In this document: positions 11,756-44,508 of the stretch, one piece after another
Numbering within the stretch: the stretch's first letter is position 1
Layout: every line of letters starts with the position of its first letter
NCBI GenBank assembly: GCA_964527995.1
Contig: CAZGRP010000025.1
Coordinates: 14,998-60,444 of the forward strand
DNA: 45,447 nucleotides
Source of the DNA: an uncultured Cytophagia bacterium
GTDB lineage: Bacteria > Zhuqueibacterota > Zhuqueibacteria > Oceanimicrobiales > CAZGRP01
Reading direction: 5' to 3'
The notes under the pieces: generated by a model
Database searches by the model: none
The model's input: only the letters and a program-made list of their open reading frames with translations
What the model was told of the DNA's origin: nothing
Made by a program: the position numbers and the translations under genes

Positions 11756-11827
11756 ACAGCCGATCCCGCTTCCGGATCGAACGGCGGCCATCTTCCGGCC
11801 TCTGTGCGCCTCCCGGGTGCGGCGTAG

Positions 11828-20900: not shown

Positions 20901-22154
20901 ATGCAGCGACGCGCTTTTCTGAAGGCGGCGGTTGCGGGCGTCCTCGGCGCACGTCTGCGCGCGGCTGGGAAAAAGTCGCAGCTGTGGGCCGGCGAGGAGC
21001 CACCGGCGCAACAGCTGCGCTACATCCGCTGGAGCTGGCAGCGCTGGCTGCAGATCACCGGAGCAAAACGCCCGGGGATTCGTACCGACCAGAGCGGCAA
21101 GCGGGAACTGGTCGACTTGCTGCGCACTGGTGGCAAGGAACTCAAAACGGCGGAAGCGTGGGAACACAGGCGCGGCGAGATCGAGGCGGTGCTGCGCGAG
21201 TTCCTCGGGCCGCCTCCCTCCGAGAGACCGCCGCTCGACGCCAGAGTTGTTGAGGAACGCCGGTTTGTGGATTTTATCCGCCGGAAGGTGATTTTCACGT
21301 CGGAGCCAGGGGAAGTAATTCCGTCCTATCTTTTCGTTCCTACCGAGCTGAAGGGGCGGGCGCCGGCGATGCTCACACCGCATCAGACCAACTACGACGG
21401 CAAACTCGAGCCGGCAGGTATCCGTGGCGAGCCGTCACTGGCCCTGGCCGTGCAACTGGCGCAGCGCGGATACGTCACTCTGGCCGCTGACGCTATTGCG
21501 TTTGGGGAGCGCCACGAGCCGTCTTCGGGACATTACGGCGACGCGATTGAGTTTTACTACCGCCACCCGCAGTGGTCAGTGATGGGCAAGATGAACTGGG
21601 ACAAGGGGCGGGCCATCGACTATCTTCAGAGTCTGGAGTTTGTTGACGCCGACCGCATCGGCACCATCGGTCATTCGCACGGCGCGTACGGCTCCCTCTG
21701 GGCTGCAGCTTTCGATCCGCGCATCAAGGTTGTCGTGGCGAGCTGTGGTTTCGACACCTTTCGTGCCGACGGCAACACCTGGCGCTGGTCGCACGGCACT
21801 GCGCTGCTTCCGAAGCTCGGCTTCTACCTGGGCGATGCCGGTGCAAAGCTCAGTCTCGAAAACTTCCAGGACTACTGGGTGGAGGAAGTCACCGAGGTGC
21901 CGTTCGACTACCATCATGTGCTCTCCCTCATCGCCCCACGGCCGACCTTCTATGCCGTGGCTTTGGACGACGAGGTTTTCCCGCATGCCGAAAGCACAGT
22001 GGAGGCCATCAACCTGACACGCAAGGTCTACCAGCTCTACGGCGCCGACGAGCGCGTGGCCGTGCATACCTTCCCTGGCGGGCACCGCTTTCCAGCATCG
22101 GTTCGGAGGCAGGCCTTCGCCTGGCTGGACCGGTGGTTGATGGGGGATGGTTGA
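20901..22154 (+). CDS. Tat-exported alpha/beta-hydrolase (dienelactone-hydrolase / esterase-like)
   Basis: 417 aa. Twin-arginine signal 'MQRRAFLKAAVAGVLGA'. Nucleophile elbow 'GHSHGAYGS'. Asp/His residues further downstream complete a plausible triad. Confidence 0.5.
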   Translation: MQRRAFLKAAVAGVLGARLRAAGKKSQLWAGEEPPAQQLRYIRWSWQRWLQITGAKRPGIRTDQSGKRELVDLLRTGGKELKTAEAWEHRRGEIEAVLREFLGPPPSERPPLDARVVEERRFVDFIRRKVIFTSEPGEVIPSYLFVPTELKGRAPAMLTPHQTNYDGKLEPAGIRGEPSLALAVQLAQRGYVTLAADAIAFGERHEPSSGHYGDAIEFYYRHPQWSVMGKMNWDKGRAIDYLQSLEFVDADRIGTIGHSHGAYGSLWAAAFDPRIKVVVASCGFDTFRADGNTWRWSHGTALLPKLGFYLGDAGAKLSLENFQDYWVEEVTEVPFDYHHVLSLIAPRPTFYAVALDDEVFPHAESTVEAINLTRKVYQLYGADERVAVHTFPGGHRFPASVRRQAFAWLDRWLMGDG

Positions 22155-22329
22155 TGGAAGACGGGGACGCAAGCCGGATGAGGGGTGATGGCGGGTGGGC
22201 GCGGATTTTGGGCTGTGGATTGCCTACTGCCAACTGCCTCACCCGGGGAGCCGAGGCTGTGCCCAACTGATGACGGCGGCCAACGGAATGAACCCGATAC
22301 CTGGAACCCCAATAACCCACGTCTCAGCC

Positions 22330-23673
22330 ATGAATCGACGCACTTTCTTCACCGCATCCCTGGGAGCCGGCGTCTCCCTCGCCGGGCTCGCCGGCTGCTC
22401 CCAGCCCGAAAAAAGACGGACGACCGGGTCTGCTACCGCCACCGAGGAGGGCAAGTTGGCCGGTCTCTCCCTCGAGGCCCTGAAGGAACGGTATCGAAGC
22501 GACTTGTTCGACGACTTTCTTCCTTTCATGGACAAGTACATCATCGATCGCGAATACGGTGGCTTCATGTGCGATGCAGACCGCGATGGCACGCTTCTCG
22601 ACACCGACAAGAATGTCTGGTTCGAGGGACGCGGCATTTGGGTCTACTCTTTCCTGTACAATCATCTCGCCAAGGATCAGAAGTACCTGGATGTAGCCCG
22701 GCGCTCGGTGGACTTCATCCTGAAAAACAAGCCGACAGGAGATGCCCTCTGGCCGAGGTCCTTTACCCGCGAAGGCCGGCCCAAGTCGAAACCGCCGGCC
22801 GACGTGTACGGCGACCTGTTCGTCGCCGAAGGGCTGGCGGAATTCTCCAAGGCCGCCGGCGAGCCGCAGTACTGGGACATGGCCAAGGCCATCGTCCTCA
22901 AGTGTACCAGGATCTACGACCGCGACGACTACAATCCCATGATCGGGCGAACCTACCTCGGCCCGGACGCCCGGCCTTTCCCCGGTGCCCGCATCCAGGG
23001 TGTGTGGATGGTGCTGATCCGCATTGCCACTCAGATGTTGCGCATGCGCAACGACGCGGACCTCGAAGCCCTGGCCGATCGCTGCGTCGACGCCATCGTC
23101 TACCGCCACTACAATCCTGAGTTCCGGCTCAACAACGAACTCCTCAACCACGATCTATCCCGGCCCACCAACGAATATGCTCAGCTTGTCTACACAGGCC
23201 ATTCCATCGAGACCCTGTGGATGCTCATGGACGAGACTCTGCGCCGCAAGGACCGGAAGCTTTTCGAAACCGCCGCCGAACGCTTCCGGCGCCATGTCGA
23301 GGTGGCCTGGGACGACGTCTACGGCGGCGTTTTCCGCAATCTCCAGAACGTGGAGAAGAACATTTGGACCCTCGACAAAGTGCTGTGGGCCCAGGAGGAG
23401 GTGCTCATCGGCTCCATGATGGTGCTCGAGCACCTCGGCTCCAGGTGGGCGAAAGAATGGTTTTCCAGGATGTTTTCTTACGTGCAGGATAAATTCCCGC
23501 TGAAGCAATACGGATTTCCGCTCTGGCTTCTGTACACGGATCGTAAGGTCACTTTCGTGCGGCATGCCAAGCGGATCGGGAACTATCACCACCCCAGGCA
23601 TCTGATGCTCAACCTGCTGGCGATCCAGAGGATCCTCGATCGAGGCGGAAAAACCTCCGACGTGTTTGCGTGA
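22330..23673 (+). CDS. AGE-family (N-acylglucosamine 2-epimerase-like) (alpha/alpha)6-barrel protein, Tat lipoprotein. An unsaturated-uronyl-hydrolase-like (GH88/GH105) role is possible.
   Basis: ORF 22195..23673. Start placed at ATG 22330, giving Tat-lipoprotein signal 'MNRRTFFTASLGAGVSLAGLAGC'. Blocks 'NVWFEGRGIWVYSF', 'GHSIETLWMLMDE', 'KVLWAQEEVLIGS' fit the AGE / six-hairpin glycosidase fold. Confidence 0.45.
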   Translation: MNRRTFFTASLGAGVSLAGLAGCSQPEKRRTTGSATATEEGKLAGLSLEALKERYRSDLFDDFLPFMDKYIIDREYGGFMCDADRDGTLLDTDKNVWFEGRGIWVYSFLYNHLAKDQKYLDVARRSVDFILKNKPTGDALWPRSFTREGRPKSKPPADVYGDLFVAEGLAEFSKAAGEPQYWDMAKAIVLKCTRIYDRDDYNPMIGRTYLGPDARPFPGARIQGVWMVLIRIATQMLRMRNDADLEALADRCVDAIVYRHYNPEFRLNNELLNHDLSRPTNEYAQLVYTGHSIETLWMLMDETLRRKDRKLFETAAERFRRHVEVAWDDVYGGVFRNLQNVEKNIWTLDKVLWAQEEVLIGSMMVLEHLGSRWAKEWFSRMFSYVQDKFPLKQYGFPLWLLYTDRKVTFVRHAKRIGNYHHPRHLMLNLLAIQRILDRGGKTSDVFA

Positions 23674-23691
23674 CGGCAAGGATAGCGCACG

Positions 23692-24768
23692 ATGGCGGAG
23701 AGCAAAATCGGCTTTGGCATCATCGGCTGCGGCCTCATCAGTGAGTTTCACGCCCGGGCCATCCAGTCGCTTCCTGATGCTCGTGTCGTCGGCTTTGCGG
23801 ACGTGGCTCTCGAGAAGGCCCGGCAACGCTCCGGCCAATTCGGCGGCCAGGCGTACGCCGACTATCACCAGCTTCTCGACCTCGACGACGTTCACGTCAT
23901 CAACGTCTGCACACCGAATGGCATGCATGAGGAAATCGTCCTGGAAGCAGCGGCAGCCGGCAAACATGTGATGGTGGAAAAGCCTCTCGAAATCAGCCTC
24001 GAGCGCGCCGACCGGATGATCGCGGCCTGCAAGCAACATCACGTGAAACTTGCCACCGTGCTGCAGGCCCGCTTCCGGCCGGCCGTGCAGGCGCTGCGGC
24101 GGGCGGTAGAAGAAGGCCGACTCGGACGGCTTCTGCTCGGGGACGCAGTGGTGAAGTGGCATCGCGGCGAGTCCTACTACCACCGCGACCCCTGGCGCAG
24201 CACCCGGGCGCTGCAAGGCGGCGGGGTCATGATGCAGATCGCCATCCACTACATCGACCTGCTGCGCTGGCTGCTCGGACCTGTCGAGACAGTGACAGCC
24301 AGAACCGCCAACCTGCTCCGCCGCGACATCGAGGTTGAAGACAGCGGAATCGCTGTCATCGAGTTCAGTAATGGCGCGCTCGGTCTGGTAGAGGCGTCCA
24401 CCGCCATCGCGCCGGGATTCGAGCCGCGGCTCGAACTCCACGGCGAGCGCGGCAGTGTGCTCATCGAGGGCGACCGAATCCGTGACTGGGCCCTCGGCGA
24501 CGACGATGAACGCGCCCGCTTCATCGGCCTGGGTCGCCCCGGGCAGCGCACCGGCGCCGGCGGCGAGGCCGATTTCGGCTGGGAAGATCACCGTGCTGCC
24601 GTCGCCGATATGATCGAAGCCGTGCGCAGCGGTCGCGCCCCGGCGGTGACCGGAGAGGACGGCCGCAACGCCCTCGAGCTGGTGTTGGCCATCTATCGCT
24701 CCGCCGAGCTGGGTACCCCGGTGCGGCTGGCCCATGCCCGCAGGGCCGGTCCACAGACACCTGAATGA
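23692..24768 (+). CDS. Gfo/Idh/MocA-family oxidoreductase (2 of 3)
   Basis: 358 aa. 'IGFGIIGCGLISEFHA', 'GKHVMVEKPLE'. 18 bp downstream of the AGE gene. Confidence 0.8.
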   Translation: MAESKIGFGIIGCGLISEFHARAIQSLPDARVVGFADVALEKARQRSGQFGGQAYADYHQLLDLDDVHVINVCTPNGMHEEIVLEAAAAGKHVMVEKPLEISLERADRMIAACKQHHVKLATVLQARFRPAVQALRRAVEEGRLGRLLLGDAVVKWHRGESYYHRDPWRSTRALQGGGVMMQIAIHYIDLLRWLLGPVETVTARTANLLRRDIEVEDSGIAVIEFSNGALGLVEASTAIAPGFEPRLELHGERGSVLIEGDRIRDWALGDDDERARFIGLGRPGQRTGAGGEADFGWEDHRAAVADMIEAVRSGRAPAVTGEDGRNALELVLAIYRSAELGTPVRLAHARRAGPQTPE

Positions 24769-24846
24769 GTTGCCACCGAATGGGTTGGGAGCCACGGCGA
24801 AGGCTGTGCGCTCTCTGAACCAGATACTGCAAAGGGTGCCGTCTAC

Positions 24847-27075
24847 ATGGCTATCAGCAACTGCCGAAAGCTCAAGCGACTGATGCCGACTCTGATCGGT
24901 ATCCTGCTCGCTTTAAGTCTCGGTCCAGATTCGGCGGCCGCCCGGCCCGACACTTTGAGCGTCTCGGTGAGTCGCTTCCGTGTCGCTCCGGGGGACACGG
25001 TCGACATTCGCGTGCAATTACGCGGCACAAACGGAACGAACCGCGAGCAAGTGCAGGCCGTCCTTCTCAAGCCTTCCCGAGGCGTCGAACCTCTGTCCCT
25101 GTCGCAGGTGGGATCGGAACCAGGTCTTTATCGCGCTCAGATACGGTTCGGAAGCGACGACGCGGCCGGGCTTTATGCCGTGCACGTCTGGACGGGTCCG
25201 CAACGCCAGCCACGAGCGGTCGGCAAGGCAACGGTGCTGCTGGGGAGAATCGTCGCCGATTTCGCGCTGCCGGGATACATTGACGGCGACCGGCCCGCGG
25301 CCGACCTGAAGCGTTACCTGGATGAGTTCCAGGCATTCGGCGGAAATCTTCTCGTAGCCCACGGGCTGATCACGGGCAAAAAGGCCTACTACGCGTCGCG
25401 GGTCGTCCAGACAGACGTCCAGCCCGGCTCGCCGGACGACCTCGTCGAGGCCATGCTTCGGGAAGCGGACCGGCGTGGCATCAGCGTTTTGCTCTCGGTC
25501 AGTTGGGACTTAACGCGGAAGACGCCCTATGGGGACCGGATGCGGCAGATCCGATCGATCATGAAGGAGATGTACTCGCTGTACCGTCACCACCCCTCGC
25601 TGGTCGGCTTTTACTCTTATCAGGAAGGCAGCGGCACCTACTATGTTCCGTTTATTCGCGAATTCAGCCGGTTTGCCAAAAGCCTGAATCCAAATCTCCT
25701 GACTGCCTGCGCACCCTATGTCGACGACCCGCTGCTGGCTGGATATCTTTCCACGGTCGAATCGCTGGACATCATCATCTACCAGGGCATGGTGATGGCG
25801 AGCTATCGCTCTGACAATCAGAAGATGTACCCGCTCCGTCGCGTCAGGGACTTCGTCTCGCTGGGGATTGGTGCGGCCAAGCTACAAAACAAGATTTCCC
25901 TTACTCATGTGGAGCTGTTCGGATATGACCAGCACCGCCTGGCCCCGGACATCCCTGCCACAACCTACGACAATATCTACGGGCAGATCTTGAGCGCCGC
26001 CACGGCAGCGGGTGCCGACGGCATTGCTCTTTTCACCTATCACGCCCACATTTTCGCTCCTGCAAAGAAACACCCTCAAGTGGAGCGCAGCCGCGCCGCT
26101 GTGCGAGATGGGCTGAAGGCGTTTCGTCTCATCACGTCTGAGATTTCAATCGAACCCAACCACCTGGCTCTCTACGTCCCCTACTCGGACTGGGTGATCG
26201 AACGCTGGCCGAACGACTACCTGCCGGCGCTGGACGCGTTCCGCACCATGGGAATCCCGGTGGATGTGCTGCCTTATGCACCACCTGTCGACGAGTCGCT
26301 CTTGCCCTACTACCCGTTTCACTTGAACAAGGACGTACTGGCCCGTCTCCTGAAACAACGAACCGTCCTGATTCTGCCCAACGTCTCCGGCTTCCAGCAG
26401 ACAGACAGCGACCTGATCAAGGCCTTTGTTGACGCAGGCGGCGCCGTGGTCGCTTTTGGCCCTCAGATTCCAACGGGCCGGAGCTATGACCGGCGGGAAC
26501 TGTTCGGCGGCGAAGAGGCTGACACCAAGACTCGGACCGCCCTGACGGTGCGCCGGGCGATCGGCGACCGCGTCCCCAGCGGCAGCCGCCGCACGCTGGA
26601 TGGGCTGCGGCTTCGCGCCTGGAGGGTGACCGATGGCAAGGCGGTGGCCACCTTCGAAGACGGTTCCGCGGCCGTCGTCACCCACAGACCTGGCAAAGGC
26701 GTGACGATCGCGATTTTGCCGGACGCCCAGACAGCAGCCCGATATATCCCCGACTTGGTCCGCGACGCCATCGACTACGCGCTGCAGTCGATGGGTGTCA
26801 CCCGCCCGGTCGACATCCTCGGCACAAACGCCGATGTCGATCTGGCTGTCCGCACCCTGCCGCGAGGTTTTCGAGTCGGTGTCGTGAACCACAACCCGGT
26901 CGAGCTACCCATCCGGCTCAAACCTTTGGGGAGGCTGGCAGCCGTGTTGCTGCAGTGGCGCGATCTGGCCACCGGACAGGACATCGGGCAATCACAACCG
27001 AATCAGGCGTTGAGCATTCGCATCCCTGCCGGAGGATTTCGCGCGCTGGAGTGCCGCGAGAAGCCGGCCCGCTGA
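24847..27075 (+). CDS. secreted multidomain glycoside-hydrolase-like protein (N-terminal Ig-like region, DUF4434/GHL-type TIM barrel, GATase1-like / beta-galactosidase-trimerisation-like domain)
   Basis: 742 aa. Signal 'MPTLIGILLALSLGPDSAAA'; start could be 24847 or 24883. TIM-barrel-like core 'GISVLLSVSWD...YVPFIREF..LDIIIYQGM'. 'VLILPNVSGFQQTDSDLIKAFVDAGGAVVAFG' resembles a GATase1-like domain. Confidence 0.35.
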   Translation: MAISNCRKLKRLMPTLIGILLALSLGPDSAAARPDTLSVSVSRFRVAPGDTVDIRVQLRGTNGTNREQVQAVLLKPSRGVEPLSLSQVGSEPGLYRAQIRFGSDDAAGLYAVHVWTGPQRQPRAVGKATVLLGRIVADFALPGYIDGDRPAADLKRYLDEFQAFGGNLLVAHGLITGKKAYYASRVVQTDVQPGSPDDLVEAMLREADRRGISVLLSVSWDLTRKTPYGDRMRQIRSIMKEMYSLYRHHPSLVGFYSYQEGSGTYYVPFIREFSRFAKSLNPNLLTACAPYVDDPLLAGYLSTVESLDIIIYQGMVMASYRSDNQKMYPLRRVRDFVSLGIGAAKLQNKISLTHVELFGYDQHRLAPDIPATTYDNIYGQILSAATAAGADGIALFTYHAHIFAPAKKHPQVERSRAAVRDGLKAFRLITSEISIEPNHLALYVPYSDWVIERWPNDYLPALDAFRTMGIPVDVLPYAPPVDESLLPYYPFHLNKDVLARLLKQRTVLILPNVSGFQQTDSDLIKAFVDAGGAVVAFGPQIPTGRSYDRRELFGGEEADTKTRTALTVRRAIGDRVPSGSRRTLDGLRLRAWRVTDGKAVATFEDGSAAVVTHRPGKGVTIAILPDAQTAARYIPDLVRDAIDYALQSMGVTRPVDILGTNADVDLAVRTLPRGFRVGVVNHNPVELPIRLKPLGRLAAVLLQWRDLATGQDIGQSQPNQALSIRIPAGGFRALECREKPAR

Positions 27076-27167
27076 GAAAAACGGGGCGCGCAATTGGAAA
27101 ACCGCGTCGGACCACGGGAAGGTCCGTGAGCATGCGCCGACTGCCAGGCTCCTGAAAGGAGGTATGA

Positions 27168-28442
27168 TTGGACCTCATTTCCTCATTGCGGAAACTCTGG
27201 AAACCGATCGCAACGGTAGTGGGCCCTGCCGCCGTGATGACGGCTGGCATCATGGGCGCCGGCTCGACCACGTCGCTGGTGTTGAGCGGCACCTATTTTG
27301 GCTACAGCCTCCTGTGGATCGCCGTGGTGACTCTGCCCGTCGTGGTGATCGCCGAAGAATCCGCCTCGCGCATCGGCATTATGGCTGGCAACCAGGGGAT
27401 GTTCAGCATCATCCGCGACCGCACACATCCGGTGGTGCCGTGGCTACTGCTGGTCACGATTCTGCCGCTCGCGGTGCTTGGAAACATGTCACAGACCAAG
27501 GTCATGGTCCACAGTCTGCTGACGATCGCCGGCATTGAGCAGCCGGACTTCACTGTCACGGCCGTGACCACGGCCCTGGTCGTCCTGCTGACCATGGCCA
27601 CGGTGTTGCTGGGCGGCTACCGGCGTATCGAGCGCATCATGACTTCGTTGCTCTTTCTGATCGCCCTGGCCTTTTTGCTGGTCGCGGCGAAGGGCTTCGC
27701 CGAGATCGGCGACATCGCCAAGGGGCTGGTGCCGCGCGTCCCTCCCGATGCGGGCGGCCGGAGTGCGGTGCACTACATCGCCGCCATCGCCGGAGGTGCC
27801 GTCGCTGCTACAGCCATCCTTTCGTTCCCCTATTTTACTGCCGAAGCCGGCTACCGCCGCGAGGACATCCCGAGCGGATTCAAGAAGGCCGTGCTCACCC
27901 TCGGCGTCATCTTCGGCATCTATTCGGTGACGGTCCTGGTCGCCGGCGGCTCGGTGCTGCACAAACTTCCGAACGCCACCGAGATTCAAACGGCGGCGCA
28001 GGCAGGACGCGTTCTCGGGCCCGTGCTCGGCCGCTGGAGCGTTTTTGCGTTCTCGCTGGGTCTGGCCGCCTGTGCCTACAGCACCTTCGTGATCGTAGCG
28101 CAGTTGTCCACCTACTTCATCCTCGACACGTTGAAGCTCGATTGGCACTTCCGCCCTGACAACCAGCATTTCCGCTGGGTTTTCGCAGCGGCCATGGCGC
28201 TGCCCGGGCTGCTCTCGGCCTTCTGGAGCTTCCCAGCGCTCTTGGCCATCGTCCTGTCCATGGCCCTGGGCGTCATCATCACGCCCTTCGCGATCGTCCT
28301 GGTGATGTACCTGATCAACAAACCCGAACTGATGAACGGCTACCGGGCCAGTTGGGTGCGCAATGCCATCCTTTTCCTCGGCCTCGGCCTGAGCCTCTGG
28401 ATCGCGCTTCGGCAAGTCCTTCCCTATTTGACTGGAGGGTAA
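27168..28442 (+). CDS. Nramp-fold (MntH-like) membrane transporter lacking the canonical DPGN metal-binding motif
   Basis: 424 aa, ~11 TM segments. TTG start with AAGGAGG 5 nt upstream. 'GPAAVMTAGIMGAGSTTS...FGYSLLWIAVVTLPVVVIAEESASRIGIMAGN' aligns with Nramp TM1-TM3 (GPGFLMSIA.LDPGN...GYKLLW...E.SARLG). The D-P-G-N metal ligands are replaced by M-G-A-G-S. The stop is 3 nt before the heparinase-like gene's start. Confidence 0.55.
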   Translation: MDLISSLRKLWKPIATVVGPAAVMTAGIMGAGSTTSLVLSGTYFGYSLLWIAVVTLPVVVIAEESASRIGIMAGNQGMFSIIRDRTHPVVPWLLLVTILPLAVLGNMSQTKVMVHSLLTIAGIEQPDFTVTAVTTALVVLLTMATVLLGGYRRIERIMTSLLFLIALAFLLVAAKGFAEIGDIAKGLVPRVPPDAGGRSAVHYIAAIAGGAVAATAILSFPYFTAEAGYRREDIPSGFKKAVLTLGVIFGIYSVTVLVAGGSVLHKLPNATEIQTAAQAGRVLGPVLGRWSVFAFSLGLAACAYSTFVIVAQLSTYFILDTLKLDWHFRPDNQHFRWVFAAAMALPGLLSAFWSFPALLAIVLSMALGVIITPFAIVLVMYLINKPELMNGYRASWVRNAILFLGLGLSLWIALRQVLPYLTGG

Positions 28443-28445
28443 GTC

Positions 28446-31400
28446 ATGCTGCTTCGGCGTTTCGGCACATTTCTCCGTATTCTGTCCGCATTATTGATCG
28501 CAAGTCAACCACTATGGGCACAGGGGCCTGCGGTTGTCTACGAAGCCTACACGTTCAGGCAGGATTTCGAGAGCGGCGAGAACACCGGTTGGGCCAGCTA
28601 TCCACCGGCGCAGGACACCGCCTACGATCCCGGCCTCTACCCCACCTCGGAGACGCATCCAGCCGGCAGCCAATATGCGCTGATGCGCGAGCGCCGGCAG
28701 GGATTCGTCGGCCCGCTCGATATCGGCGTGATCCGCAAAGTGCGCCTGCGTGTCACCGAACAATCCACCCTGCGATTCGATTTCAATCTCAAAGACTACG
28801 GCGGCGCCAGCAGCTTCGAGGCCGTCGTCGCGGCTGCCGACGGCAAACAGTATCACTATGCCGTGCCGGCCTGGCAAAGCGGCCAGTGGCAGACAGTCAC
28901 AGCCCCACTCTCCAGGTTTGTGGCCCAGGGACAGGCTCTGCCCTCTGGAGCGGAAGTGCAGGCGATCTATTTCAAGGCGACCATCCCGGAGAGCGACCCG
29001 GATGTCGTCTATCGACTGGCTGTCGACAATGTCGAGCTCACAGGGCAGCGAAAGGCCGACTTCCAGATCTTGCAGCCCGAAACCGCCTACCTGGAGCACT
29101 GGCACCGCTGGGTTTCAGTCAGGCATTATCACCGCGGCGAGAATGTGCTGATTCAGGTAACGCCGCCGAAAGCAGCCGGTCGCCTGAAGGAAGCCTGGGC
29201 CAGCCTCTACGCGCCGAACGGCGCACAGGTGGTGAAGAAGAGGCGTTTGCAACGCGTTGACACAGGATCCCCGGTCGGGCGGTGGGGTACCTCAGGGCTG
29301 TACCGCATCCGCTCCAACGATCCCTTCGGAATCTGGCGAGTGGAGGTTGGCGGTAAGGATCGCCGTGGACGGAGCATTTCTACCTCGATGACCTTCTGGG
29401 TGACGCCTGAGCCTGGCCGCCTGGGTCATCCGCGGCTTTTCTTCAGCGCCAACGACGTCCCCCGCTATCAGGCCCTCGCCGCCGGTGCCGGCAAGCAGCT
29501 CTGGCAAAAGCTCGTCGATAAGGCGGCGAAGCTGAGGCAGGAACTGAACCTCGACCGCATCCGGGGAGCACAGATCGGCGCCATGGACCGGCGCTTCCTG
29601 CTGCCGACTCTGCGCGGATATTTCGACATCATCTCCCCGCTCACTGACTTTCTGGGCACCAACTCTATCGTGTACGCCATCACCGGCGACGATACGGTCG
29701 GCAACGCTCTGAAAGATGCCGTGCTGGCCGCGGCGCAAATGGAACAGTGGACCCCTCCCTGGTTCGTAACCCGCGGCCAGCCGACTTATTATCCCATCGG
29801 CCGACTGGCGTACCAGGTAGCCTTCGCCTACGACGTGCTCTACAACCGCCTGAGCCAGGAGGAACGCCAGGTGATTCGGGACGGGCTGAGGCGTCTGATC
29901 ATCCAGCCGGCATATCAGGAGTATGTCGTGGACAATCGCGTCCCCTTCAGCACCAGCAACTGGATCTGCCACGTCACTGGCGGCGCACTGCTGGCCGCGA
30001 CCTCCATCTACGGAGACGATCCAAATCAGGGAGATCTCGAGCCCTACCTTTCCGGACTGCTGGCAAAAATGACCACCGTGATCTCCTCCACCCTCGGACC
30101 GGCCGGAAGCTGGGGCGAAGGCTACAGCTATGAACGTTTCGCCTTCGAATCACTGACCCCGGCGCTGGCGGCGCTGGAACGAAATTTCGACATCCGCGTT
30201 TTCGACCGAACTCCTCTGGCGAACGCCTTGTACTTGCCGCTCTATGCCTACAGCGCGCCCGAATTGCTCGATTTCGGAGACACCTCAGATCATCTCTACA
30301 GCAGCGGTCCCTTCGCCTGGCTGGCGTGGCGTGCCGCAAACCCCTACTGGAAATGGTTCAACGAGCAGGCTGGTAGGAACGATGTGCAGAGCTTTATCTG
30401 GTTTGCCCCGGAGTTGTCCGCGAAGGCTCCAGCCGATCTGCCAACCTCACGCTACTTCCCCAAAGTGGGCAGCGCTGTATTTCGCACCGGATGGTCGCCT
30501 GACGACATTCTCTTCCACTTCCGTGCCGGGCCGTTCGTCAACCATCAGCACTTCGACCAGGGCAGCTTCCTGCTGCAGGCCTTCGGCGAGGCCCTGGTGA
30601 CCGAAGGCGGTAAGAGCCACTACTACGACGACCCGTACTACCAGACCTACTTCATCCAGGCTGCGGGTCACAACACGGTGCTGATCAACGGCAATCCCGG
30701 AAGCCAGCGCAGCGGTGATCTAAGAAGCGACGCGGTCGCTCTGGACAGCTCAGCAGCCATCACCGACCACCTGACCACACCGTTCCTCGACATGGTCTCC
30801 GCCCGCCTCGAACGCCTGTACCGTGGGAAACTCAGTCGGTTCGAACGCACGGTTCTCTTCCTGAAGCCGGACTACTTTGTCATCTTCGATCGCCTGCGCT
30901 CAACCGGCGAGCCGCTCACCTATGACTGGCTGCTGCACGGTCCCAGGTACGATGGCCTACGAGTCAACACCGCGTATGCGGAAATCGCCGGCAAGCGGGC
31001 GAGTCTCCTGGTCAAGGTGGTCGCGCCTTCGGACGCACAGGTGGAAAGGAAAGAGGCACCCATCCCCATCGCTGAGGTGCTGCACCCAGAGTCTCCTGGC
31101 CTGCGAGTCCCGGGTTACTTCCAGGTGAGCAACCCCACGCCGAGGGTGAGCGAGGAGTTCCTCGTGGTTCTCTACCCGGAACGCCGCCCCGCCACCGATG
31201 GCGCGGCAGAGAGGCAGATGCAGCGGTTGGCCCAGCGGGTTGTGAGGATCGAGGCAGAGGGTTTCGTCGGCGTCGAAGTGACTCGCGGCGAGGCTGTCGA
31301 CCGCATCTACTTTCGCAGCCAAGACGGGAAGCGGATTCTGCAGGATGCCGATCTCACAGCGGATGCTGCTGCTTTGGCTGTCACCCGGGAACAAGGAGCG

Positions 31401-31685
31401 CTGCGACGCGTTTTCTTGCGCAGCGGCACCTTCGTTCAAGTCTCCGGCGAAAAGCTTCTGGCCACGGATCGGCCCCTGACGGCAACAGCCCTGCTGACGC
31501 AGGGGCAAGCCCGATGGCAGTTCAATTCGCCCGAAGCCACCAGTGTCTCCCTCACCCTGCCTGCCGCACCGGGCAGCGTCAGGATGGACGGGAAGCCTGT
31601 TCGGCGAGTCAACTTCAGCAAGAGCGAGGGGCGTCTGCGACTCTACCTCCCGGCAGGGCAACACAGTCTCGAACTAGCGTACTGA
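28446..31685 (+). CDS. secreted heparinase II/III-like polysaccharide lyase family protein with N-terminal beta-sandwich and alginate-lyase-like (alpha/alpha) domains
   Basis: 1079 aa. Signal 'LRILSALLIASQPLWAQG'. C-terminal block 'VNHQHFDQGSFLLQAFGEALVTEGG...AAGHNTVLINGNPGSQR' matches the heparinase II/III-like domain (H..D.GSF / HNT). The preceding (alpha/alpha) toroid region begins 'HPRLFFSANDVPRYQ'. Confidence 0.65.
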   Translation: MLLRRFGTFLRILSALLIASQPLWAQGPAVVYEAYTFRQDFESGENTGWASYPPAQDTAYDPGLYPTSETHPAGSQYALMRERRQGFVGPLDIGVIRKVRLRVTEQSTLRFDFNLKDYGGASSFEAVVAAADGKQYHYAVPAWQSGQWQTVTAPLSRFVAQGQALPSGAEVQAIYFKATIPESDPDVVYRLAVDNVELTGQRKADFQILQPETAYLEHWHRWVSVRHYHRGENVLIQVTPPKAAGRLKEAWASLYAPNGAQVVKKRRLQRVDTGSPVGRWGTSGLYRIRSNDPFGIWRVEVGGKDRRGRSISTSMTFWVTPEPGRLGHPRLFFSANDVPRYQALAAGAGKQLWQKLVDKAAKLRQELNLDRIRGAQIGAMDRRFLLPTLRGYFDIISPLTDFLGTNSIVYAITGDDTVGNALKDAVLAAAQMEQWTPPWFVTRGQPTYYPIGRLAYQVAFAYDVLYNRLSQEERQVIRDGLRRLIIQPAYQEYVVDNRVPFSTSNWICHVTGGALLAATSIYGDDPNQGDLEPYLSGLLAKMTTVISSTLGPAGSWGEGYSYERFAFESLTPALAALERNFDIRVFDRTPLANALYLPLYAYSAPELLDFGDTSDHLYSSGPFAWLAWRAANPYWKWFNEQAGRNDVQSFIWFAPELSAKAPADLPTSRYFPKVGSAVFRTGWSPDDILFHFRAGPFVNHQHFDQGSFLLQAFGEALVTEGGKSHYYDDPYYQTYFIQAAGHNTVLINGNPGSQRSGDLRSDAVALDSSAAITDHLTTPFLDMVSARLERLYRGKLSRFERTVLFLKPDYFVIFDRLRSTGEPLTYDWLLHGPRYDGLRVNTAYAEIAGKRASLLVKVVAPSDAQVERKEAPIPIAEVLHPESPGLRVPGYFQVSNPTPRVSEEFLVVLYPERRPATDGAAERQMQRLAQRVVRIEAEGFVGVEVTRGEAVDRIYFRSQDGKRILQDADLTADAAALAVTREQGALRRVFLRSGTFVQVSGEKLLATDRPLTATALLTQGQARWQFNSPEATSVSLTLPAAPGSVRMDGKPVRRVNFSKSEGRLRLYLPAGQHSLELAY

Positions 31686-31698: not shown

Positions 31699-32727
31699 AT
31701 GGAGAAGTTGGGTATTGGAGTCATCGGACTCGGCATCATGGGCCGGCAGTATCTCACCGTGTACCAGCGAAATCCCAACACCGAGGTCCGCGCCGTGGCC
31801 AATCGTTCGTCCCAGCGACTCGCCCAGGTGGCGTCGGACTTCGGTATCGATGAGCGGAATCGATACCAGGACTACAGGAAGTTGCTGGAGCGAGCCGATG
31901 TCGATGCGGTTTGCGTGGCCACTCCCGATTTTGCCCACACCGAGATCGTGCTGGACGCCCTCGACGCCGGCAAACACGTGCTCGTGGAGAAACCGATGAC
32001 AACTTCCACTGCCGAGGCCGACCGCATCGTTTCCAGGGTGCGGGACACAGGGCTGAAGCTGCAGGTGGCGTACAATCACCGCTGGCTGCCGGTCTACTAC
32101 CACGCGCACTCCCTCATCAAAAGTGGCGAAATCGGCGATCCGGTCATGGGATTCGCCCGCAAGAACGACACCCTCTTCGTTGCCACAGAGATGATCAACT
32201 GGGCGGCACAAACCTCGCCGACCTACTTCCTGAACTCCCACGATGTCGACCTCATGCGCTGGTACTTCGACAGCGAGGCGGTGGAGGCACGGGGCTACGG
32301 CCGTAAGGGGGTCCTCAGCGCCCGTGGCATCGATGCTTACGATGTGGTGCAGGGCCAGGTGAAATTCGCCAACGGCGCCTTCGCCACCTTCGAGTCCGGA
32401 TGGATCTATCCGAACACCTTCCCGACCATCGTCGACTCCTTTGTGGAAGTGATCGGCACGCGAGGGCATCTACATCTGCCGCGCAAGGCAGAATCGATGG
32501 AGATGAGCACTGAGAAGGCCTTCACCTACCCGCGGACTCTGTTGTTCAACGACATCTTCGGCCAACTCGGCGGGGCTTTTCCCGCCTGCCTGAATCATTT
32601 CGTCGAGTGCATTCTGCAGGACCGTGAGCCGGTAACGAATGCTGTCGAAGGCCGCCAGGTGACGGCGATCCTCGAGGCCATCATGACGTCGGTGGAGCGG
32701 GGCGGTGAGACGGTGAAGGTGAAGTGA
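31699..32727 (+). CDS. Gfo/Idh/MocA-family oxidoreductase (3 of 3)
   Basis: 342 aa. 'LGIGVIGLGIMGRQY', 'GKHVLVEKPMT'. 13 bp after the lyase-like gene. Confidence 0.8.
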   Translation: MEKLGIGVIGLGIMGRQYLTVYQRNPNTEVRAVANRSSQRLAQVASDFGIDERNRYQDYRKLLERADVDAVCVATPDFAHTEIVLDALDAGKHVLVEKPMTTSTAEADRIVSRVRDTGLKLQVAYNHRWLPVYYHAHSLIKSGEIGDPVMGFARKNDTLFVATEMINWAAQTSPTYFLNSHDVDLMRWYFDSEAVEARGYGRKGVLSARGIDAYDVVQGQVKFANGAFATFESGWIYPNTFPTIVDSFVEVIGTRGHLHLPRKAESMEMSTEKAFTYPRTLLFNDIFGQLGGAFPACLNHFVECILQDREPVTNAVEGRQVTAILEAIMTSVERGGETVKVK

Positions 32728-32799: not shown

Positions 32800-33735
32800 A
32801 TGAGACTGCTGACGTTTGAAACGAAAGGACAAACACGGATCGGGGCGCTGATACAGGGTGACAGGGTTGTCGATCTCAACCGCGCCGCCCAGGAGCTGCT
32901 CGGTCTCTCAGGAGGGGCACCTCTGGGTGAGGACATGCGTGCATTCCTTTCGGCCGGAGAGGGTGCCGCGCAGGCTGCCGCGCAGATCATCTCTCGAATC
33001 GAAGAGCTGCTCGACTCGAATGCCGCGGCTGTTCCAGCGGACACTCTCTTCGATCTGGCGGCCGTGAGGCTGCGTGCGCCCATCACCAATCCTCAGAAGA
33101 TTCTCGCGGTGGGACTCAACTACCGCGATCACTGCGAGGAAAACCACCTCGACCCGCCGGAACACCCGATCATGTTCGCCAAGTTGACGTCCGCCGTCAT
33201 CGGCCCTGGTGACCCCATCTTGTGGCCACCCGAGGTGACCGATCAGGTCGATTATGAAGCCGAGTTCGCCTTCGTGGTGGGCCGGCAGGCGCGTTCCATC
33301 TCTGTCGACGAGGCCCTGGACTATGTTTTCGGGTATACAATCCTCAACGACGTCTCGGCGCGCGATCTGCAATTCGCCGACGGCCAGTGGGTGCGGGCCA
33401 AATCACTCGACACCTTCTGCCCCATCGGCCCGACGCTGGTCAGCATGGACGAGTTCCCCTACCCTCCTGCGCTCGAGATCAGTTGTAGCGTCAACGGCCG
33501 CAGGCTGCAACATTCCAACACCCGCCACCTGATTTTCGGCGTGGCCGATCTGCTGAGCTTCATCAGCCAGACCTGCACCCTCTATCCAGGGGACATCGTT
33601 TCCACCGGCACACCCGGAGGCGTCGGCTACTACCAGAAGCCGCAGGTCTTCCTGAAGCCGGGCGACGAGGTGACGGTTGAAATCGAAGGACTCGGCGCGC
33701 TGACCAACCCCGTGGGAACGTGGCGGCGGGAGTAG
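32800..33735 (+). CDS. fumarylacetoacetate-hydrolase (FAH) family protein, likely a 2-keto-3-deoxy sugar-acid dehydratase/hydratase
   Basis: 311 aa. 'KILAVGLNYRDHCEE', 'YEAEFAFVVG', 'GYTILNDVSARDLQ', 'GDIVSTGTPGGVG' are characteristic FAH-fold blocks. Confidence 0.75.
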   Translation: MRLLTFETKGQTRIGALIQGDRVVDLNRAAQELLGLSGGAPLGEDMRAFLSAGEGAAQAAAQIISRIEELLDSNAAAVPADTLFDLAAVRLRAPITNPQKILAVGLNYRDHCEENHLDPPEHPIMFAKLTSAVIGPGDPILWPPEVTDQVDYEAEFAFVVGRQARSISVDEALDYVFGYTILNDVSARDLQFADGQWVRAKSLDTFCPIGPTLVSMDEFPYPPALEISCSVNGRRLQHSNTRHLIFGVADLLSFISQTCTLYPGDIVSTGTPGGVGYYQKPQVFLKPGDEVTVEIEGLGALTNPVGTWRRE

Positions 33736-34691: not shown

Positions 34692-36956
34692 ATGCGCCCT
34701 CGTCTGCCGTACCTCCCCGTCATCCTGCTCTACCTGCTCGTGTTTCCGTGGAAGGCTGAGGCAACCAATCCGCCCAACAAGGGTCGCTTTCCCAAGGGCT
34801 TCTGGACCTCTGTGCGTGGCGATAGCCTGCTGATGAGCTACGGAGACCCTGGGTGGGTCAAGAAAATGCAGCACCGCCGACAACTCCGGCTGGATATGGC
34901 ATTGGGAAAGGGCCTCGGCTACGCCCTGCAGTCCGACACCTTCTACGTGCCCGTGCTTCTCGGGCAGTACAGCGACAGCAGTGCCACCTTGCCAGCGCAG
35001 GACTTCCAGAATCTCCTGTTTGACAACAACCCCACGGGAACACTGACCGACTACTACGACGAGGTCTCCTACGGGCAGCTCCATGTCACCGGCACGGTCT
35101 ACGGCTGGTTCACGGTCGACAACGGTCAGTCCTATTACGCCAGCAACAACCACGGCCGCAACTCGAACTTCCCACAGAACGGCGCCGGCTTTGTGCGCGA
35201 CCTGGTAGCCAAAGCCGACCCGACCGTGGACTTCAGCCAGTTCGACAACGACGGCCCGGACGGCGTACCCAACTCGGGCGACGATGATGGCTTTGTGGAC
35301 GCTGTGATCGCCGTCTTCGCCGGCGCCGGAGCGGATTGGAAGCCGGCGAACGACAACCTGTGGCCTTTCCAGGGTTCACTGGGCAGCAATGCCTACACCA
35401 CCAACGACCCTTCGGCCAATGGCGGCATGATCAAGGTGAACACCTTCATCGTTTGCCCGGAAGAGGCGGGGAGCGGCAGCGGGAACAATCAGATCCGCCC
35501 CATCGGCGTTTTCGCTCACGAATTCGGCCATGTTCTCGGCCTCCCGGACCAGTACGACCGCACCGACGCCTCTGAGCCGCCGGACTATAACGATTCGGAA
35601 GGCCTTGGAGAGTGGTGCCTCATGGCTAGCGGCAGTTGGGGCGGCGACGGCAACCATTCCGAGAAGCCCGCCCACATGTGTGCCTGGGGCAAGATCCAGT
35701 TGGGATGGTTGACTCCGACCATCCTAACGCAGGACCGCAGCGGCCTGACCATCCCGCAAGTCGAGACCAACGCCTCGGCCTACCTTCTATGGGAAGATGG
35801 CTATCAGTGGAGTCGCTATTTCCTCCTGGAGAATCGCCAGAAGGTCGGCTTCGACCAGTACCTCAACGGTTCGGGGCTGTTGATCTACCACGTCGATGAG
35901 AACCGGCGCTGGGGACGTATCCGATGGTCTTCGGGCCCTGTGAACGACGACGAAACCCACAAGTTGATCGACCTCGAAGAAGCCGACGGTAGAGCGGACC
36001 TGGACAACAACATCAACCGGGGTGATGCCGGAGATCCCTTTCCAGGGACCACGAACAACCGTGCCTTCACCGATGCCACAACCCCGAACAGCCGCGACTA
36101 CGATGGCAACCCCACGGGCGTCGCCGTTACCAACATCAGCGATTCTGGGCCGACGATAACGGCGGATGTGAAGGTGCGTATGCCACTCGGCTACGCCCTC
36201 GTCTACGATGAAAACGGCATCACTGGATGGGGCTGGGGGTTCCAGAACCCCGCCGACAGTTGGGGTGGAGTGCGGTTCACCGCAACCAAGGCGGGAACGC
36301 TCGCCGCCCTGGATGTGGGCTTCCGGGCTTCCTCAACCGATTATGAGATCAAGGTTTACGACCGCCTGGCGGGATCCACACCACAGAACCTGCTGGCCAC
36401 TGTATCCGGCCACGCCGATGCTGCCGGATGGTATACCATCCCGATCCCCAGCAATACGGTTGCGCTCGGTGACAACGACGACTTTTTTGTCAGTCTGAAG
36501 ATCGCCAACAAAGCCTTCGCCATCTCCTACGACCCCTACGGCCCCAAGTCGATGCGCTCCTATTGGTCCCCCGATGGAGTGACTTTCGATAATTCGATCA
36601 GCACCAACTCCAGCGGGGGCGACATCAACATCCGAGCCCGTATCCGGACACAGACGACCACTGCAGTCGCGGATCGGGCTTCAGGCGGGCCGTACCGCTT
36701 CGATCTTCGGCAGAACTACCCGAACCCTTTCAACCCGGGCACTGAGATCCGCTATGAGCTGCCTGCTGCTGGAAAGGTCGTGCTGGAGGTCTATAACCTG
36801 CTCGGCCAGCGCGTCGCCACACTGGTGGACGAACCTCAAGCCGCCGGAGACCACGCGGTTCATTTCGAGCCCAGGAATCTGCCGAGTGGGATGTACATCT
36901 ATCGTTTGAAAGCAGGCCGGTACATAGAGTCGCGCAAGATGCTGTTGTTGCGGTAA
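34692..36956 (+). CDS. M6-family (immune-inhibitor-A-like) zinc metalloprotease with T9SS C-terminal sorting domain
   Basis: 754 aa. Signal peptide. 'VFAHEFGHVLGLPDQYD' HEXXH zincin motif in an InhA/M6-like context. C-terminal 'NYPNPFNPGTEIRYELPAAGKVVLEVYNLLGQRVATL...GMYIYRL' is a TIGR04183-type T9SS domain. Confidence 0.7.
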   Translation: MRPRLPYLPVILLYLLVFPWKAEATNPPNKGRFPKGFWTSVRGDSLLMSYGDPGWVKKMQHRRQLRLDMALGKGLGYALQSDTFYVPVLLGQYSDSSATLPAQDFQNLLFDNNPTGTLTDYYDEVSYGQLHVTGTVYGWFTVDNGQSYYASNNHGRNSNFPQNGAGFVRDLVAKADPTVDFSQFDNDGPDGVPNSGDDDGFVDAVIAVFAGAGADWKPANDNLWPFQGSLGSNAYTTNDPSANGGMIKVNTFIVCPEEAGSGSGNNQIRPIGVFAHEFGHVLGLPDQYDRTDASEPPDYNDSEGLGEWCLMASGSWGGDGNHSEKPAHMCAWGKIQLGWLTPTILTQDRSGLTIPQVETNASAYLLWEDGYQWSRYFLLENRQKVGFDQYLNGSGLLIYHVDENRRWGRIRWSSGPVNDDETHKLIDLEEADGRADLDNNINRGDAGDPFPGTTNNRAFTDATTPNSRDYDGNPTGVAVTNISDSGPTITADVKVRMPLGYALVYDENGITGWGWGFQNPADSWGGVRFTATKAGTLAALDVGFRASSTDYEIKVYDRLAGSTPQNLLATVSGHADAAGWYTIPIPSNTVALGDNDDFFVSLKIANKAFAISYDPYGPKSMRSYWSPDGVTFDNSISTNSSGGDINIRARIRTQTTTAVADRASGGPYRFDLRQNYPNPFNPGTEIRYELPAAGKVVLEVYNLLGQRVATLVDEPQAAGDHAVHFEPRNLPSGMYIYRLKAGRYIESRKMLLLR

Positions 36957-37529: not shown

Positions 37530-37617
37530 GTGGTGCCGGGGGCGGGACTCGAACCCGCACGGGGGTGAACCCCACTGGATTTTGAGTCCAGCGCGTCTAC
37601 CAGTTCCACCACCCCGG
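37530..37617 (-). tRNA. tRNA-Leu (anticodon CAA), class II with long variable arm, CCA encoded
   Basis: Reverse complement folds as a cloverleaf. Acceptor stem GCCGGGG/CCCCGGC. Anticodon stem CTGGA/TCCAG with loop CTCAAAA. Variable arm TGGGGTTCACCCCCGT. T-arm GCGGG-TTCGAGT-CCCGC. 3' ACCA. Confidence 0.85.
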
Positions 37618-37629
37618 CAAATGCAGTGC

Positions 37630-42678: not shown

Positions 42679-42681
42679 CGA

Positions 42682-43614: not shown

Positions 43615-43630
43615 GAGATCCCTCGTCCGG

Positions 43631-44503: not shown

Positions 44504-44508
44504 AGAGT

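Follow-up and report, generated by a model that had tools for sequence, protein, structure and literature searches.

Nramp/SLC11 is the standard example of a metal-ion transport family, and databases label all of its members metal transporters. Here, we describe a divergent member encoded in a 45,447-nucleotide (nt) stretch of DNA (referred to as the window) from an uncultured Cytophagia bacterium (GTDB lineage Bacteria; Zhuqueibacterota; Zhuqueibacteria; Oceanimicrobiales; CAZGRP01; GenBank assembly GCA_964527995.1, contig CAZGRP010000025.1, positions 14,998 to 60,444). This 424-amino-acid (aa) membrane protein (referred to as the carrier) has the Nramp fold, has lost all canonical metal ligands in a manner conserved across its clade, and belongs to an operon in which the next gene encodes a 1079-aa heparinase II/III-like polysaccharide lyase; a link to lyases and dehydrogenases recurs in its relatives. 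What is new is an uncharacterized clade of Nramp-related proteins, with a Gly-based motif in the first transmembrane helix (TM1), that has a specific and conserved tie to polysaccharide lyase operons.

Canonical Nramp/MntH/SLC11 proteins (e.g., DraNramp, ScaDMT, EcoDMT, BfraNramp, and human NRAMP1 and DMT1) have in common with the carrier the Pfam family, the fold, and several scaffold motifs (GP...(A)G at TM1a, FGYxLLW, and SA(R/K)xG in TM2), but their DPGN and AxxMPH motifs, TM3 Glu, and TM10 Gln are all replaced in it. The best solved sequence relative is EleNRMT (PDB 7qia; identity of ~19 to 25%; E = 5e-13 with a single sequence and 2.5e-21 with the family profile; template-modeling score [TM-score] of 0.81), which has the same 11-TM LeuT fold and, according to a 2026 preprint from the Gaudet laboratory, likewise has neither the Nramp Met nor the proton-pathway residues of TM3 and TM9 (PMC12873925). 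In EleNRMT, the TM1 Asp is retained (D-A-G-G) and TM6 reads T..A-P-W, whereas the carrier has Gly and G..A-A-T at these places, and NRMTs, unlike the carrier, have no carbohydrate gene context. A weaker match was obtained with NRAT (PDB 8ont; E = 1.8e-4 with a single sequence and 2.6e-6 with the profile), which shows P-S-N in TM1; the TM1 of the carrier has no Asp. Plant Al3+ transporters of the NRAT type have D-P-S-N in TM1 and retain the metal-binding Asp.

The closest functional analogy is provided by YcsG/MntG of Bacillus subtilis and PxpT of Corynebacterium glutamicum ("G-motif 3"), which, like the carrier, have Gly in place of the TM1 Asp and whose genes sit in organic-acid catabolic operons (pxpABC, 5-oxoproline) rather than in metal regulons. 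C. glutamicum needs PxpT, which is an Nramp-family protein of the YcsG type, for growth on 5-oxoproline (PMC13274462). YcsG, encoded in a 5-oxoprolinase operon, was first tied to 5-oxoproline use and was renamed MntG after its overexpression raised cellular Mn; a triple mutant in mntH, mntA, and ycsG proved unobtainable (PMC10448178). The substrate of the YcsG group is thus disputed between Mn2+ and 5-oxoproline. These proteins differ from the carrier in their motifs (F-I-G-P-G-T and G-T-T-V-V-P-Y-N), in retaining the TM10 Gln and often the TM3 Glu, and in forming a separate clade with another gene context. One F-I-G-P-G-T protein (P0067) is encoded in an Nramp-like-LamB_YcsF-CT_C_D-CT_A_B operon, which identifies the F-I-G-P-G-T clade as the YcsG/PxpT group; no LamB_YcsF, CT_C_D, or CT_A_B gene was found near any locus of the carrier's clade. 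A further Gly-motif Nramp-related protein (P0064; L081, L082 6001-7392; TM1 A-A-G-P-A-T and TM6 G-G-A-V-H-I-T) is encoded directly 5' of ThiD-like (Phos_pyr_kin), ThiN, and NMT1/ABC genes, which suggests that it is a thiamine-precursor carrier.

APC amino acid carriers (ApcT, GkApcT, BasC, LAT1, and AdiC), which have 12 TMs, resemble the carrier in fold only, with no detectable sequence homology. Their TM1 is broken at G-(S/A)-G, where main-chain amides bind the substrate carboxylate, a feature reminiscent of the M-G-A-G-S of the carrier. In lyase loci, inner-membrane uptake of uronates and oligo-uronates released by the lyases is the task of ExuT-type MFS proteins, KdgT, SSS-type Toa, and TRAP importers, all of which belong to protein families unrelated to the carrier, for which we propose the same role. 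To our knowledge, no member of the Nramp family has been shown to import uronates or other lyase products. We found no literature linking an Nramp-family protein of the carrier's type to polysaccharide lyases, apart from one unexplained case: the legend of Fig. S3 in a study of Alteromonas sp. 76-1 has an "Nramp, metal-ion transporter" gene drawn among lyases, KdgF, and DEH reductase in AS1/AS2, with an MFS carrier also drawn in the Alteromonas alginolytic clusters (PMC6431674). As to classification, Cellier splits PF01566 into Slc11, an outgroup, and NRMT (PMC9606685). The Gaudet laboratory preprint describes Nramp-related proteins as paraphyletic and highly diverse, with varied residues for DPGN and MPH; it names "NRMT-like" and "G-motif 3" (with B. 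subtilis MntG/YcsG) and calls other groups entirely uncharacterized (PMC12873925).

Fold and metal-ligand positions of the carrier

The Nramp fold, which had been proposed from the sequence of the window, was confirmed by both profile and structure comparisons. The Pfam hidden Markov model for Nramp (PF01566) matched the carrier over its full length (134.4 bits against a gathering threshold of 29.8; E = 6.7e-39; residues 36 to 395, model positions 3 to 356 of 357). Scores for the NCBIfam models MntH (NF001923; 55.4) and nramp (TIGR01197; 23.7) fell below the respective cutoffs of 430 and 272.5, and "Nramp family divalent metal transporter" (NF037982) was matched at 51.3 against a cutoff of 50, over residues 19 to 215 only. 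Owing to this marginal, half-length pass, annotation pipelines will call the carrier a metal transporter. An AlphaFold2 model built with 45 homologs (predicted local distance difference test score, 92.7; predicted TM-score, 0.90) has the LeuT fold with 11 TM helices and unwound TM1 and TM6, the breaks lying at residues 29-30 and 212-213, i.e., at G30 and A213. In a Foldseek search with this model, DraNramp, EleNRMT, BfraNramp, and human NRAMP1/DMT1 ranked first (TM-scores of ~0.7 to 0.8, with ~0.8 for DraNramp and EleNRMT), followed by APC amino acid carriers (~0.55 to 0.68).

The motif register was taken from three alignments, namely, (i) phmmer against EleNRMT (7qia), (ii) the family profile against EleNRMT, BfraNramp (10ky), and DraNramp (8e6i), and (iii) hmmalign of ~150 family members. 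The TM1 metal ligands of DraNramp, D56-P-G-N59, correspond to G30-A31-G32-S33 in the carrier; A227-x-x-M230-P-H232 of TM6, with its metal ligand and His, to G210-x-x-A213-A214-T215; D131 and E134 of TM3 to N106 and Q109; the metal ligand Q378 of TM10 to M365; and R352/R353 of the TM9 proton pathway to hydrophobic residues. The original prediction had M-G-A-G-S replacing D-P-G-N. The loss of the metal-ligand motif holds and is more complete than was proposed, affecting TM1, TM3, TM6, and TM10, although M29 is the residue that precedes the Asp (canonical YMDPGN) and the true tetrad is G-A-G-S. Ligands at shifted positions were also sought and rejected: TM1 (residues 19 to 45) contains no Asp, Glu, Asn, or His, and TM6 (residues 198 to 228) has only two such residues, H201 where TM6a begins and E226 where TM6b finishes, each well removed from the break at residues 212-213.

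By a crude addition of standard residue volumes, which is no measure of the cavity, these replacements take away ~240 cubic angstroms of side chain. Judged from the alignments, the metal site appears to have been replaced by a wider, uncharged pocket lined by S33, T34, N106, Q109, T306, and Q312, in which the Gly/Ala-rich breaks of TM1 (M-G-A-G-S-T) and TM6 (G-G-A-x-A) would expose main-chain atoms. Three conserved Met residues (M29, M107, and M365) lie near the site.

The carrier belongs to a small, distinct clade of ~60 sequences. A word-indexed search of 5.8 billion proteins returned 63 close homologs (37 to 100% identity), after which identity fell sharply to 28%. An exhaustive profile search of 1.84 billion cluster representatives returned only 39 of them at E <= 1e-30, mostly fragments; about eight full-length representatives scored >400 bits, and the next scores were ~150 bits. 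Among annotated plasmids, tblastn detected only relatives of <=29% identity, mostly haloarchaeal and from Rhizobium. Across 45 homologs (37 to 82% identity), G30, G32, and A213 are invariant; M365 is also invariant in the clade, and M29, Q109, and D64 are nearly so. Invariance over this range of identity indicates that the replacements are not due to chance, and, together with the confident model, it led us to reject the possibility that the carrier is a pseudogene or a decaying Nramp.

Gly at the position of the Asp also occurs in neighboring clades of the alignment (F-I-G-P-G-T, L-G-P-G-S, I-G-T-G-S, A-G-P-A-T, and M-G-P-G-T), whereas NRMT-like sequences retain the Asp (N-D-A-G-G; TM6 T-T-I-A-P-W). 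In a rough neighbor-joining tree, the clade forms one group within this Gly-motif assemblage, apart from canonical Nramp, NRMT-like proteins, and the F-I-G-P-G-T (YcsG/PxpT) group. Membership in NRMT was rejected on two grounds, the absence of the TM1 Asp and the separate branch in the tree. Two features associated with "G-motif" proteins, the replacement of DPGN by a Gly-based motif and the absence of the proton pathway of TM3 and TM9, are seen in the carrier, and we infer that it belongs to this set (PMC12873925). One member of the L-G-P-G-S group (P0144; 761 aa) is fused to a DUF6807 (PF14100) domain.

The lyase operon and its recurrence in related genomes

The carrier gene lies within a co-oriented block of genes with short gaps (positions 20901 to 33735), in the order CE15, AGE, GFO/IDH/MocA, DUF4434, carrier, heparinase-like lyase, GFO/IDH/MocA, and fumarylacetoacetate hydrolase (FAH) (Table 1). 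The only strong promoter-like site on the plus strand is located upstream of the CE15 gene, which is the first of the block, and no convincing intrinsic terminator was found within the block. Genes for an aldo-keto reductase and a GHL10 protein are also found near the block.

The claim that the neighboring gene encodes a secreted polysaccharide-lyase-like protein was borne out. This protein has a signal peptide and matches Pfam Hepar_II_III_C (E = 8.6e-13), and its best solved homolog is the polysaccharide lyase family 35 (PL35) enzyme GAGase II (PDB 8khv; E = 1.7e-17), a glycosaminoglycan lyase of very broad specificity, followed by heparinase II (PL21) and oligo-alginate lyase (PL15). Its score of 48 against the cutoff of 600 for HepB (NF045571) shows that it is distinct from heparinase II itself. 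The catalytic residues of GAGase II are N192, Y246, and H401, and its Mn2+ site consists of H403, D405, D421, and H457 (PMC12088678). The equivalents in the window lyase are N505, Y562, and H700 and H702, D704, E720, and H742, respectively, H742 having been placed via the conserved GHNT motif and not by the HMMER register. The catalytic and metal-site residues are kept in six partner lyases of the carrier subclass described below as class A, each of which has a signal peptide. These conserved residues and signal peptides suggest that the partner is probably an active extracytoplasmic beta-elimination lyase for a uronate-containing polymer. The recurring GFO/IDH/MocA proteins start right at the Rossmann motif, with no signal peptide, and are thus cytoplasmic.

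We fetched 160 related loci and sorted their carriers by motif into four subclasses (A to D). Class A comprises the window and Ignavibacteria-like metagenome-assembled genomes (51 to 82% identity; carrier motif V/I-M-G-A-G-S-T-T). All seven evaluable distinct loci of this class have a Hepar-like gene downstream on the same strand, at a distance of 7 to 1246 nt, and six of them have a GFO/IDH/MocA gene 3 to 5 kb further downstream, the seventh locus being a 6-kb contig. Genes for N-glycanase_C-like or GH84-like proteins are located upstream in most class A loci, and CE15, Amidohydro_2, and FAH genes occur in some. Class B (Hydrogenedentota and Planctomycetota; carrier motif ...G-G-A-L-A-A-A-P) adjoins a different lyase family, Pec_lyase (PF09492), which is encoded convergently at a distance of 71 to 150 nt in five of seven evaluable loci, often with GFO/IDH/MocA. 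In class C (Omnitrophota, KSB1, and Planctomycetales; carrier motif I-M-G-A-G-S-T-V), a GFO/IDH/MocA gene is adjacent or within 2.4 kb.

Class D (T-M-G-A-G-A-x-A) is made up of Halieaceae and other Gammaproteobacteria, including the cultured Congregibacter, Pseudohaliea, Chromatocurvus, and Exilibacterium, and its 87 loci contain none of the twelve partner families. The neighbors here are neither carbohydrate nor metal genes; they encode DUF885, Amidohydro_1, aldo-keto reductase, luciferase-like monooxygenase, and reductive-dehalogenase-like proteins and a conserved 119-aa Cys-rich protein. Class D loci of cultured Halieaceae are represented by L042 (Congregibacter brevis NZ_CP136865.1), L044, L045, L057, L077, and L036. 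A metagenome scan for the lyase-linked classes yielded mostly class D and added just four full-length loci of classes A to C plus fragments. Among the annotated neighbor families, no metal-homeostasis genes were found in any class.

The original prediction that the carrier is translationally coupled to the lyase gene stands in part. The two genes lie in one operon, the final codons of the carrier gene contain the Shine-Dalgarno sequence for the lyase gene, and the link between the two genes recurs in relatives down to 53% identity. The exact 3-nt spacing, on the other hand, is shared only by the window and the relative of 82% identity; elsewhere, the genes are 16 to 473 nt apart or have another gene between them.

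The binding site varies with this context. A comparison of 56 distinct class A to C sequences with 50 distinct class D sequences revealed 14 positions that are conserved in the former (>=85%) and rare in the latter (<=10%). TM1, TM3, TM6, and TM8 are the helices that form the substrate site of the LeuT fold, and 9 of the 14 positions are on them (~4 expected by chance; binomial P of ~0.01). Five are polar-to-apolar changes from classes A to C to class D (T25A, S33A, T34V/I/A, N106T/G/A, and S219G). This concentration on the site helices indicates that, at the level of sequence, the site behaves as a specificity-determining ligand pocket.

In one class A carrier (P0014; 724 aa; L083 1291-3465), the C terminus is fused to a homolog (62% identity) of a 354-aa protein that, in L003 (11312-12376), has a signal peptide and is encoded between carrier and lyase. 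Neither the 354-aa protein nor the fused domain had a Pfam or PDB match. With 11 TMs, the C terminus of the carrier would be periplasmic, making the fusion topologically sensible. The fusion would tie the carrier to periplasmic processing, but it occurs on a single 4-kb contig, and we give it little weight.

Candidate substrates

On balance, we favor, with modest confidence, the reading that the carrier takes in a small organic compound arising from the lyase pathway. The carrier would be an inner-membrane secondary carrier with the Nramp/LeuT fold, operating by ordinary alternating access. The periplasmic lyase encoded 3 nt downstream would cut a uronic-acid-containing glycan, and the carrier would bring the monomer-sized product into the cell, a uronate-type sugar acid being the most likely one. 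Processing would then fall to the cytoplasmic GFO/IDH/MocA dehydrogenases, together with the mannonate dehydratase UxuA, the aldo-keto reductase, and the FAH-family enzyme. The recurrent lyase link, the second subclade with another lyase family, and the cytoplasmic dehydrogenases make a non-metal, carbohydrate-derived substrate the best-supported one. A uronate is the leading candidate because two unrelated uronate-lyase families adjoin the carrier genes, UxuA and a glucuronoyl esterase are encoded nearby, the partner dehydrogenases are cytoplasmic, and the Gly-x-Gly break of TM1 is reminiscent of the motif with which APC amino acid carriers bind carboxylates; our confidence in a uronate specifically is clearly lower than that in an organic substrate.

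Several points weigh against this reading. We infer the organic nature of the substrate, its sugar-acid identity, the direction of transport, and the coupling ion; the case for the substrate draws on gene context and on the composition of the binding site, which was derived by alignment to solved Nramps. The pocket has no conserved basic residue to pair with a carboxylate, so binding of a sugar acid would have to rely on main-chain amides or a co-ion. A sodium:solute symporter family (SSF) carrier is already present in the neighborhood, the class B lyase is convergent and not cotranscribed, and the class A loci come from related genomes, so that seven of seven does not mean seven independent events. 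The N-glycanase-like and GH84-like genes of related loci point to amino-sugar glycans. Moreover, in vivo metal data are available for a single G-motif relative, YcsG/MntG, and its overexpression led to higher cellular Mn (PMC10448178); the loss of DPGN alone is therefore no proof of lost metal transport.

Rather unlikely, in our estimate, is import of an uncharged organic product, i.e., a neutral or amino sugar (GlcNAc/ManNAc or mannose) or a keto-sugar intermediate handled by the GFO/IDH/MocA enzymes, a family that typically acts on neutral sugars. Such a substrate would suit a pocket that is predicted to be uncharged, with many Ser, Thr, Asn, and Gln residues, and class A loci do carry an N-glycanase_C-like or GH84-like (NAGidase) gene directly 5' of the carrier gene as well as an AGE-family epimerase gene. 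However, two different lyase families, both for uronate-containing polymers, adjoin classes A and B, UxuA and the CE15 glucuronoyl esterase are encoded in the window, the SSF carrier could take up a neutral sugar, and the TM1 G-x-G break is reminiscent of the carboxylate-binding G-S/A-G of APC amino acid carriers.

Also unlikely, and slightly more so, is that the carrier still moves a divalent metal such as Mn2+ and supplies the PL35-like lyase, UxuA, or the FAH-family or amidohydrolase enzymes. The pass of NF037982, bare as it is, and the Met residues near the site (M29, M107, and M365) are compatible with a metal, as is the class B partner, annotated as a member of the pectate lyase family PF09492, which we take to be Ca2+-dependent. 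Against this, the carrier has other residues in place of all four canonical ligands and of the TM3 Glu and TM10 Gln, and its TM1 and TM6 breaks are devoid of Asp, Glu, and His; the Asp is kept in every solved metal-transporting member that we aligned, including the Mg2+ transporter EleNRMT, in which it is reportedly required for transport. The most constant partners of the carrier are NAD-dependent cytoplasmic dehydrogenases, and neither a Mn riboswitch or other RNA element, in an Rfam scan of the window that matched only a tRNA, nor a metal-regulator gene, among the annotated window genes near the carrier, was found. Metal supply for the lyase had been offered as an alternative in the original prediction; it gains from the conservation of the PL35 Mn2+-site residues (H702, D704, E720, and H742) in the partner and loses from the absence of an acidic ligand in the carrier and from the location of the lyase outside the cytoplasm, beyond the service of an importer. 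A further argument for a metal comes from YcsG/MntG, with its Mn accumulation and the unobtainable mntH mntA ycsG triple mutant (PMC10448178), but this evidence is indirect and is contested by the 5-oxoproline phenotypes of PxpT and YcsG (PMC13274462). Still, given that YcsG/MntG, encoded in a 5-oxoprolinase operon, has been reported to import Mn2+, the argument that a metal importer has no obvious reason to be coupled in this way was too strong (PMC10448178).

Transport of another inorganic species (Na+, K+, H+, or sulfate from sulfated glycans) or a role as a nontransporting sensor (transceptor) is highly improbable: in LeuT-fold carriers, Na+ is typically bound at neutral carbonyl/hydroxyl sites formed by TM1 and TM8, and sulfatase/phosphodiesterase-like genes and a ROK-family regulator gene (4553..5788) are present in the window, but the pocket residues differ systematically with subclade context, which fits a varying organic ligand and not a fixed ion, no signaling domain is attached, and the core carrier helices are strongly conserved.

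Uptake of an organic lyase product hence remains our preferred reading, and the earlier idea of an Nramp-fold protein repurposed for a non-metal substrate, perhaps a sugar acid, survives as the most likely one in view of the ligand loss and the lyase and dehydrogenase context. It stays conditional, and it is less unprecedented than had been assumed, to judge from PxpT and from the G-motif preprint (PMC12873925, PMC13274462).

With this clade, the idea that an Nramp-fold carrier may have another type of substrate becomes concrete and testable, based on a conserved neighborhood and a pocket that varies with it. If import of an organic lyase product is correct, the clade would illustrate how one fold can exchange a metal site for an organic-solute site, or the reverse, would supply the missing inner-membrane uptake step for polysaccharide utilization loci of Ignavibacteria-like, Hydrogenedentota, Planctomycetota, and Omnitrophota bacteria, and would correct a systematic misannotation. 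A wider proposition, which we regard as possible but advance only tentatively, is that the clade would be the first carbohydrate (sugar-acid) carrier in Nramp/SLC11 and that the G-motif proteins of PF01566, a large and diverse set, would have radiated as carriers of organic solutes (5-oxoproline, thiamine precursors, and lyase products) and not as metal transporters. Were this so, the annotation "divalent metal cation transporter" would be mistaken in thousands of cases, and the transport of metals would be a specialty derived in one branch of the family. Should the carrier move Mn2+ after all, its metal site would be made without any known ligand.

Features of the window

Inspection of the open reading frames (ORFs) upheld the coordinates, lengths, and 3-nt spacer originally proposed for the carrier and lyase genes. 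The start codon of the carrier gene is TTG at position 27168, with AGGAGG ending 5 nt before it; an ATG at position 27164 was rejected as the start, being out of frame and 1 nt from the Shine-Dalgarno sequence. The stop codon TAA occupies positions 28440 to 28442, and the ATG of the lyase gene is at position 28446. A protein identical over 424 aa (P0001) has already been called in public metagenomes. The long overlapping ORFs at 23155..24795 (-), 27489..28415 (-), and 28352..29260 (+) are artifacts of high GC content (62% in the window) and not genes.

Table 1. Coordinates of the carrier, its motifs, and associated features in the window
Feature	Coordinates	Strand	Evidence or remark
Sodium:solute-symporter-family (SSF) carrier, second transporter nearby	15000..16772	+	SSF gene also ends the L003 locus
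Mannonate dehydratase UxuA, hexuronate-catabolism marker	17898..18956	-	E = 2e-96
Sigma-70-like promoter, best match, possible operon start	20794..20821	+	TTGACA-16-TATTTT, 10/12 matches, with TG; weak, consensus may not suit host phylum
Glucuronoyl-esterase-like CE15, first gene	20901..22154	+	GCE_fung, E = 7.8e-14; homologs upstream of carrier in L001, L002, and L013
N-acylglucosamine-2-epimerase family (AGE)	22195..23673	+	GlcNAc_2-epim, E = 1e-22; also in L001 and at locus edge in L002
GFO/IDH/MocA oxidoreductase, upstream copy, cytoplasmic	23692..24768	+	N-terminal Rossmann motif, no signal peptide
DUF4434 protein, 742 aa, N-terminal signal peptide, directly 5' of carrier	24847..27075	+	E = 1.8e-9; 67% homolog at same place in L001
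Carrier Shine-Dalgarno sequence AGGAGG	27157..27162	+	5 nt before TTG
Nramp-related "G-motif" carrier, 424 aa, 11 predicted TM helices	27168..28442	+	ORF, Pfam, alignments, model
Codons G30-A31-G32-S33, TM1 helix break, replacing D-P-G-N	27255..27266	+	Three alignments; model break at 29-30
Codons N106-M107-S108-Q109, TM3	27483..27494	+	Q109 for conserved Glu (DraNramp E134); N106 specific to lyase-linked subclades
Codons G210-A-V-A213-A214-T215, TM6 break, replacing A-x-x-M-P-H	27795..27812	+	Alignments; model break at 212-213
Lyase-gene Shine-Dalgarno sequence GGAGG	28434..28438	+	Inside last codons of carrier gene
Heparinase-II/III-like (PL35/PL21/PL15-like) lyase, 1079 aa, predicted secreted or periplasmic	28446..31685	+	Pfam, 8khv match, residue mapping
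GFO/IDH/MocA oxidoreductase, downstream copy, cytoplasmic	31699..32727	+	Most constant partner in subclades A to C
Fumarylacetoacetate-hydrolase-family enzyme, last in block	32800..33735	+	E = 1.8e-75; in L001 and L002
tRNA gene, sole Rfam match	37534..37618	-	Rfam

Upstream of the operon, a DMFA2_C protein with a FlgD-Ig tail is encoded at 19089..20732 (-), a position conserved in L001. This protein and an M6-family peptidase encoded beyond the other end of the operon point to a host of the FCB group (Ignavibacteria-like) in spite of the GC content of 62%. Farther upstream, 6029..13033 (-) contains three genes of the alkaline phosphatase superfamily in a row, i.e., two Phosphodiest genes (one fused to Band_7 and TPR) and one sulfatase-like gene; a GFO/IDH/MocA gene (10781..11755, +) lies among them, and a GHL10 glycosidase-like gene is located downstream of the set. 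On the other side of the operon, genes unrelated to the finding occupy 40069..45354 (-) and encode DegT-type and class V aminotransferases, a PfkB kinase, an M50 peptidase, and a SAM hydroxide adenosyltransferase. Closer to the operon, 34692..36956 (+) encodes an M6-family peptidase with a lectin-like domain and a type IX secretion sorting tail.

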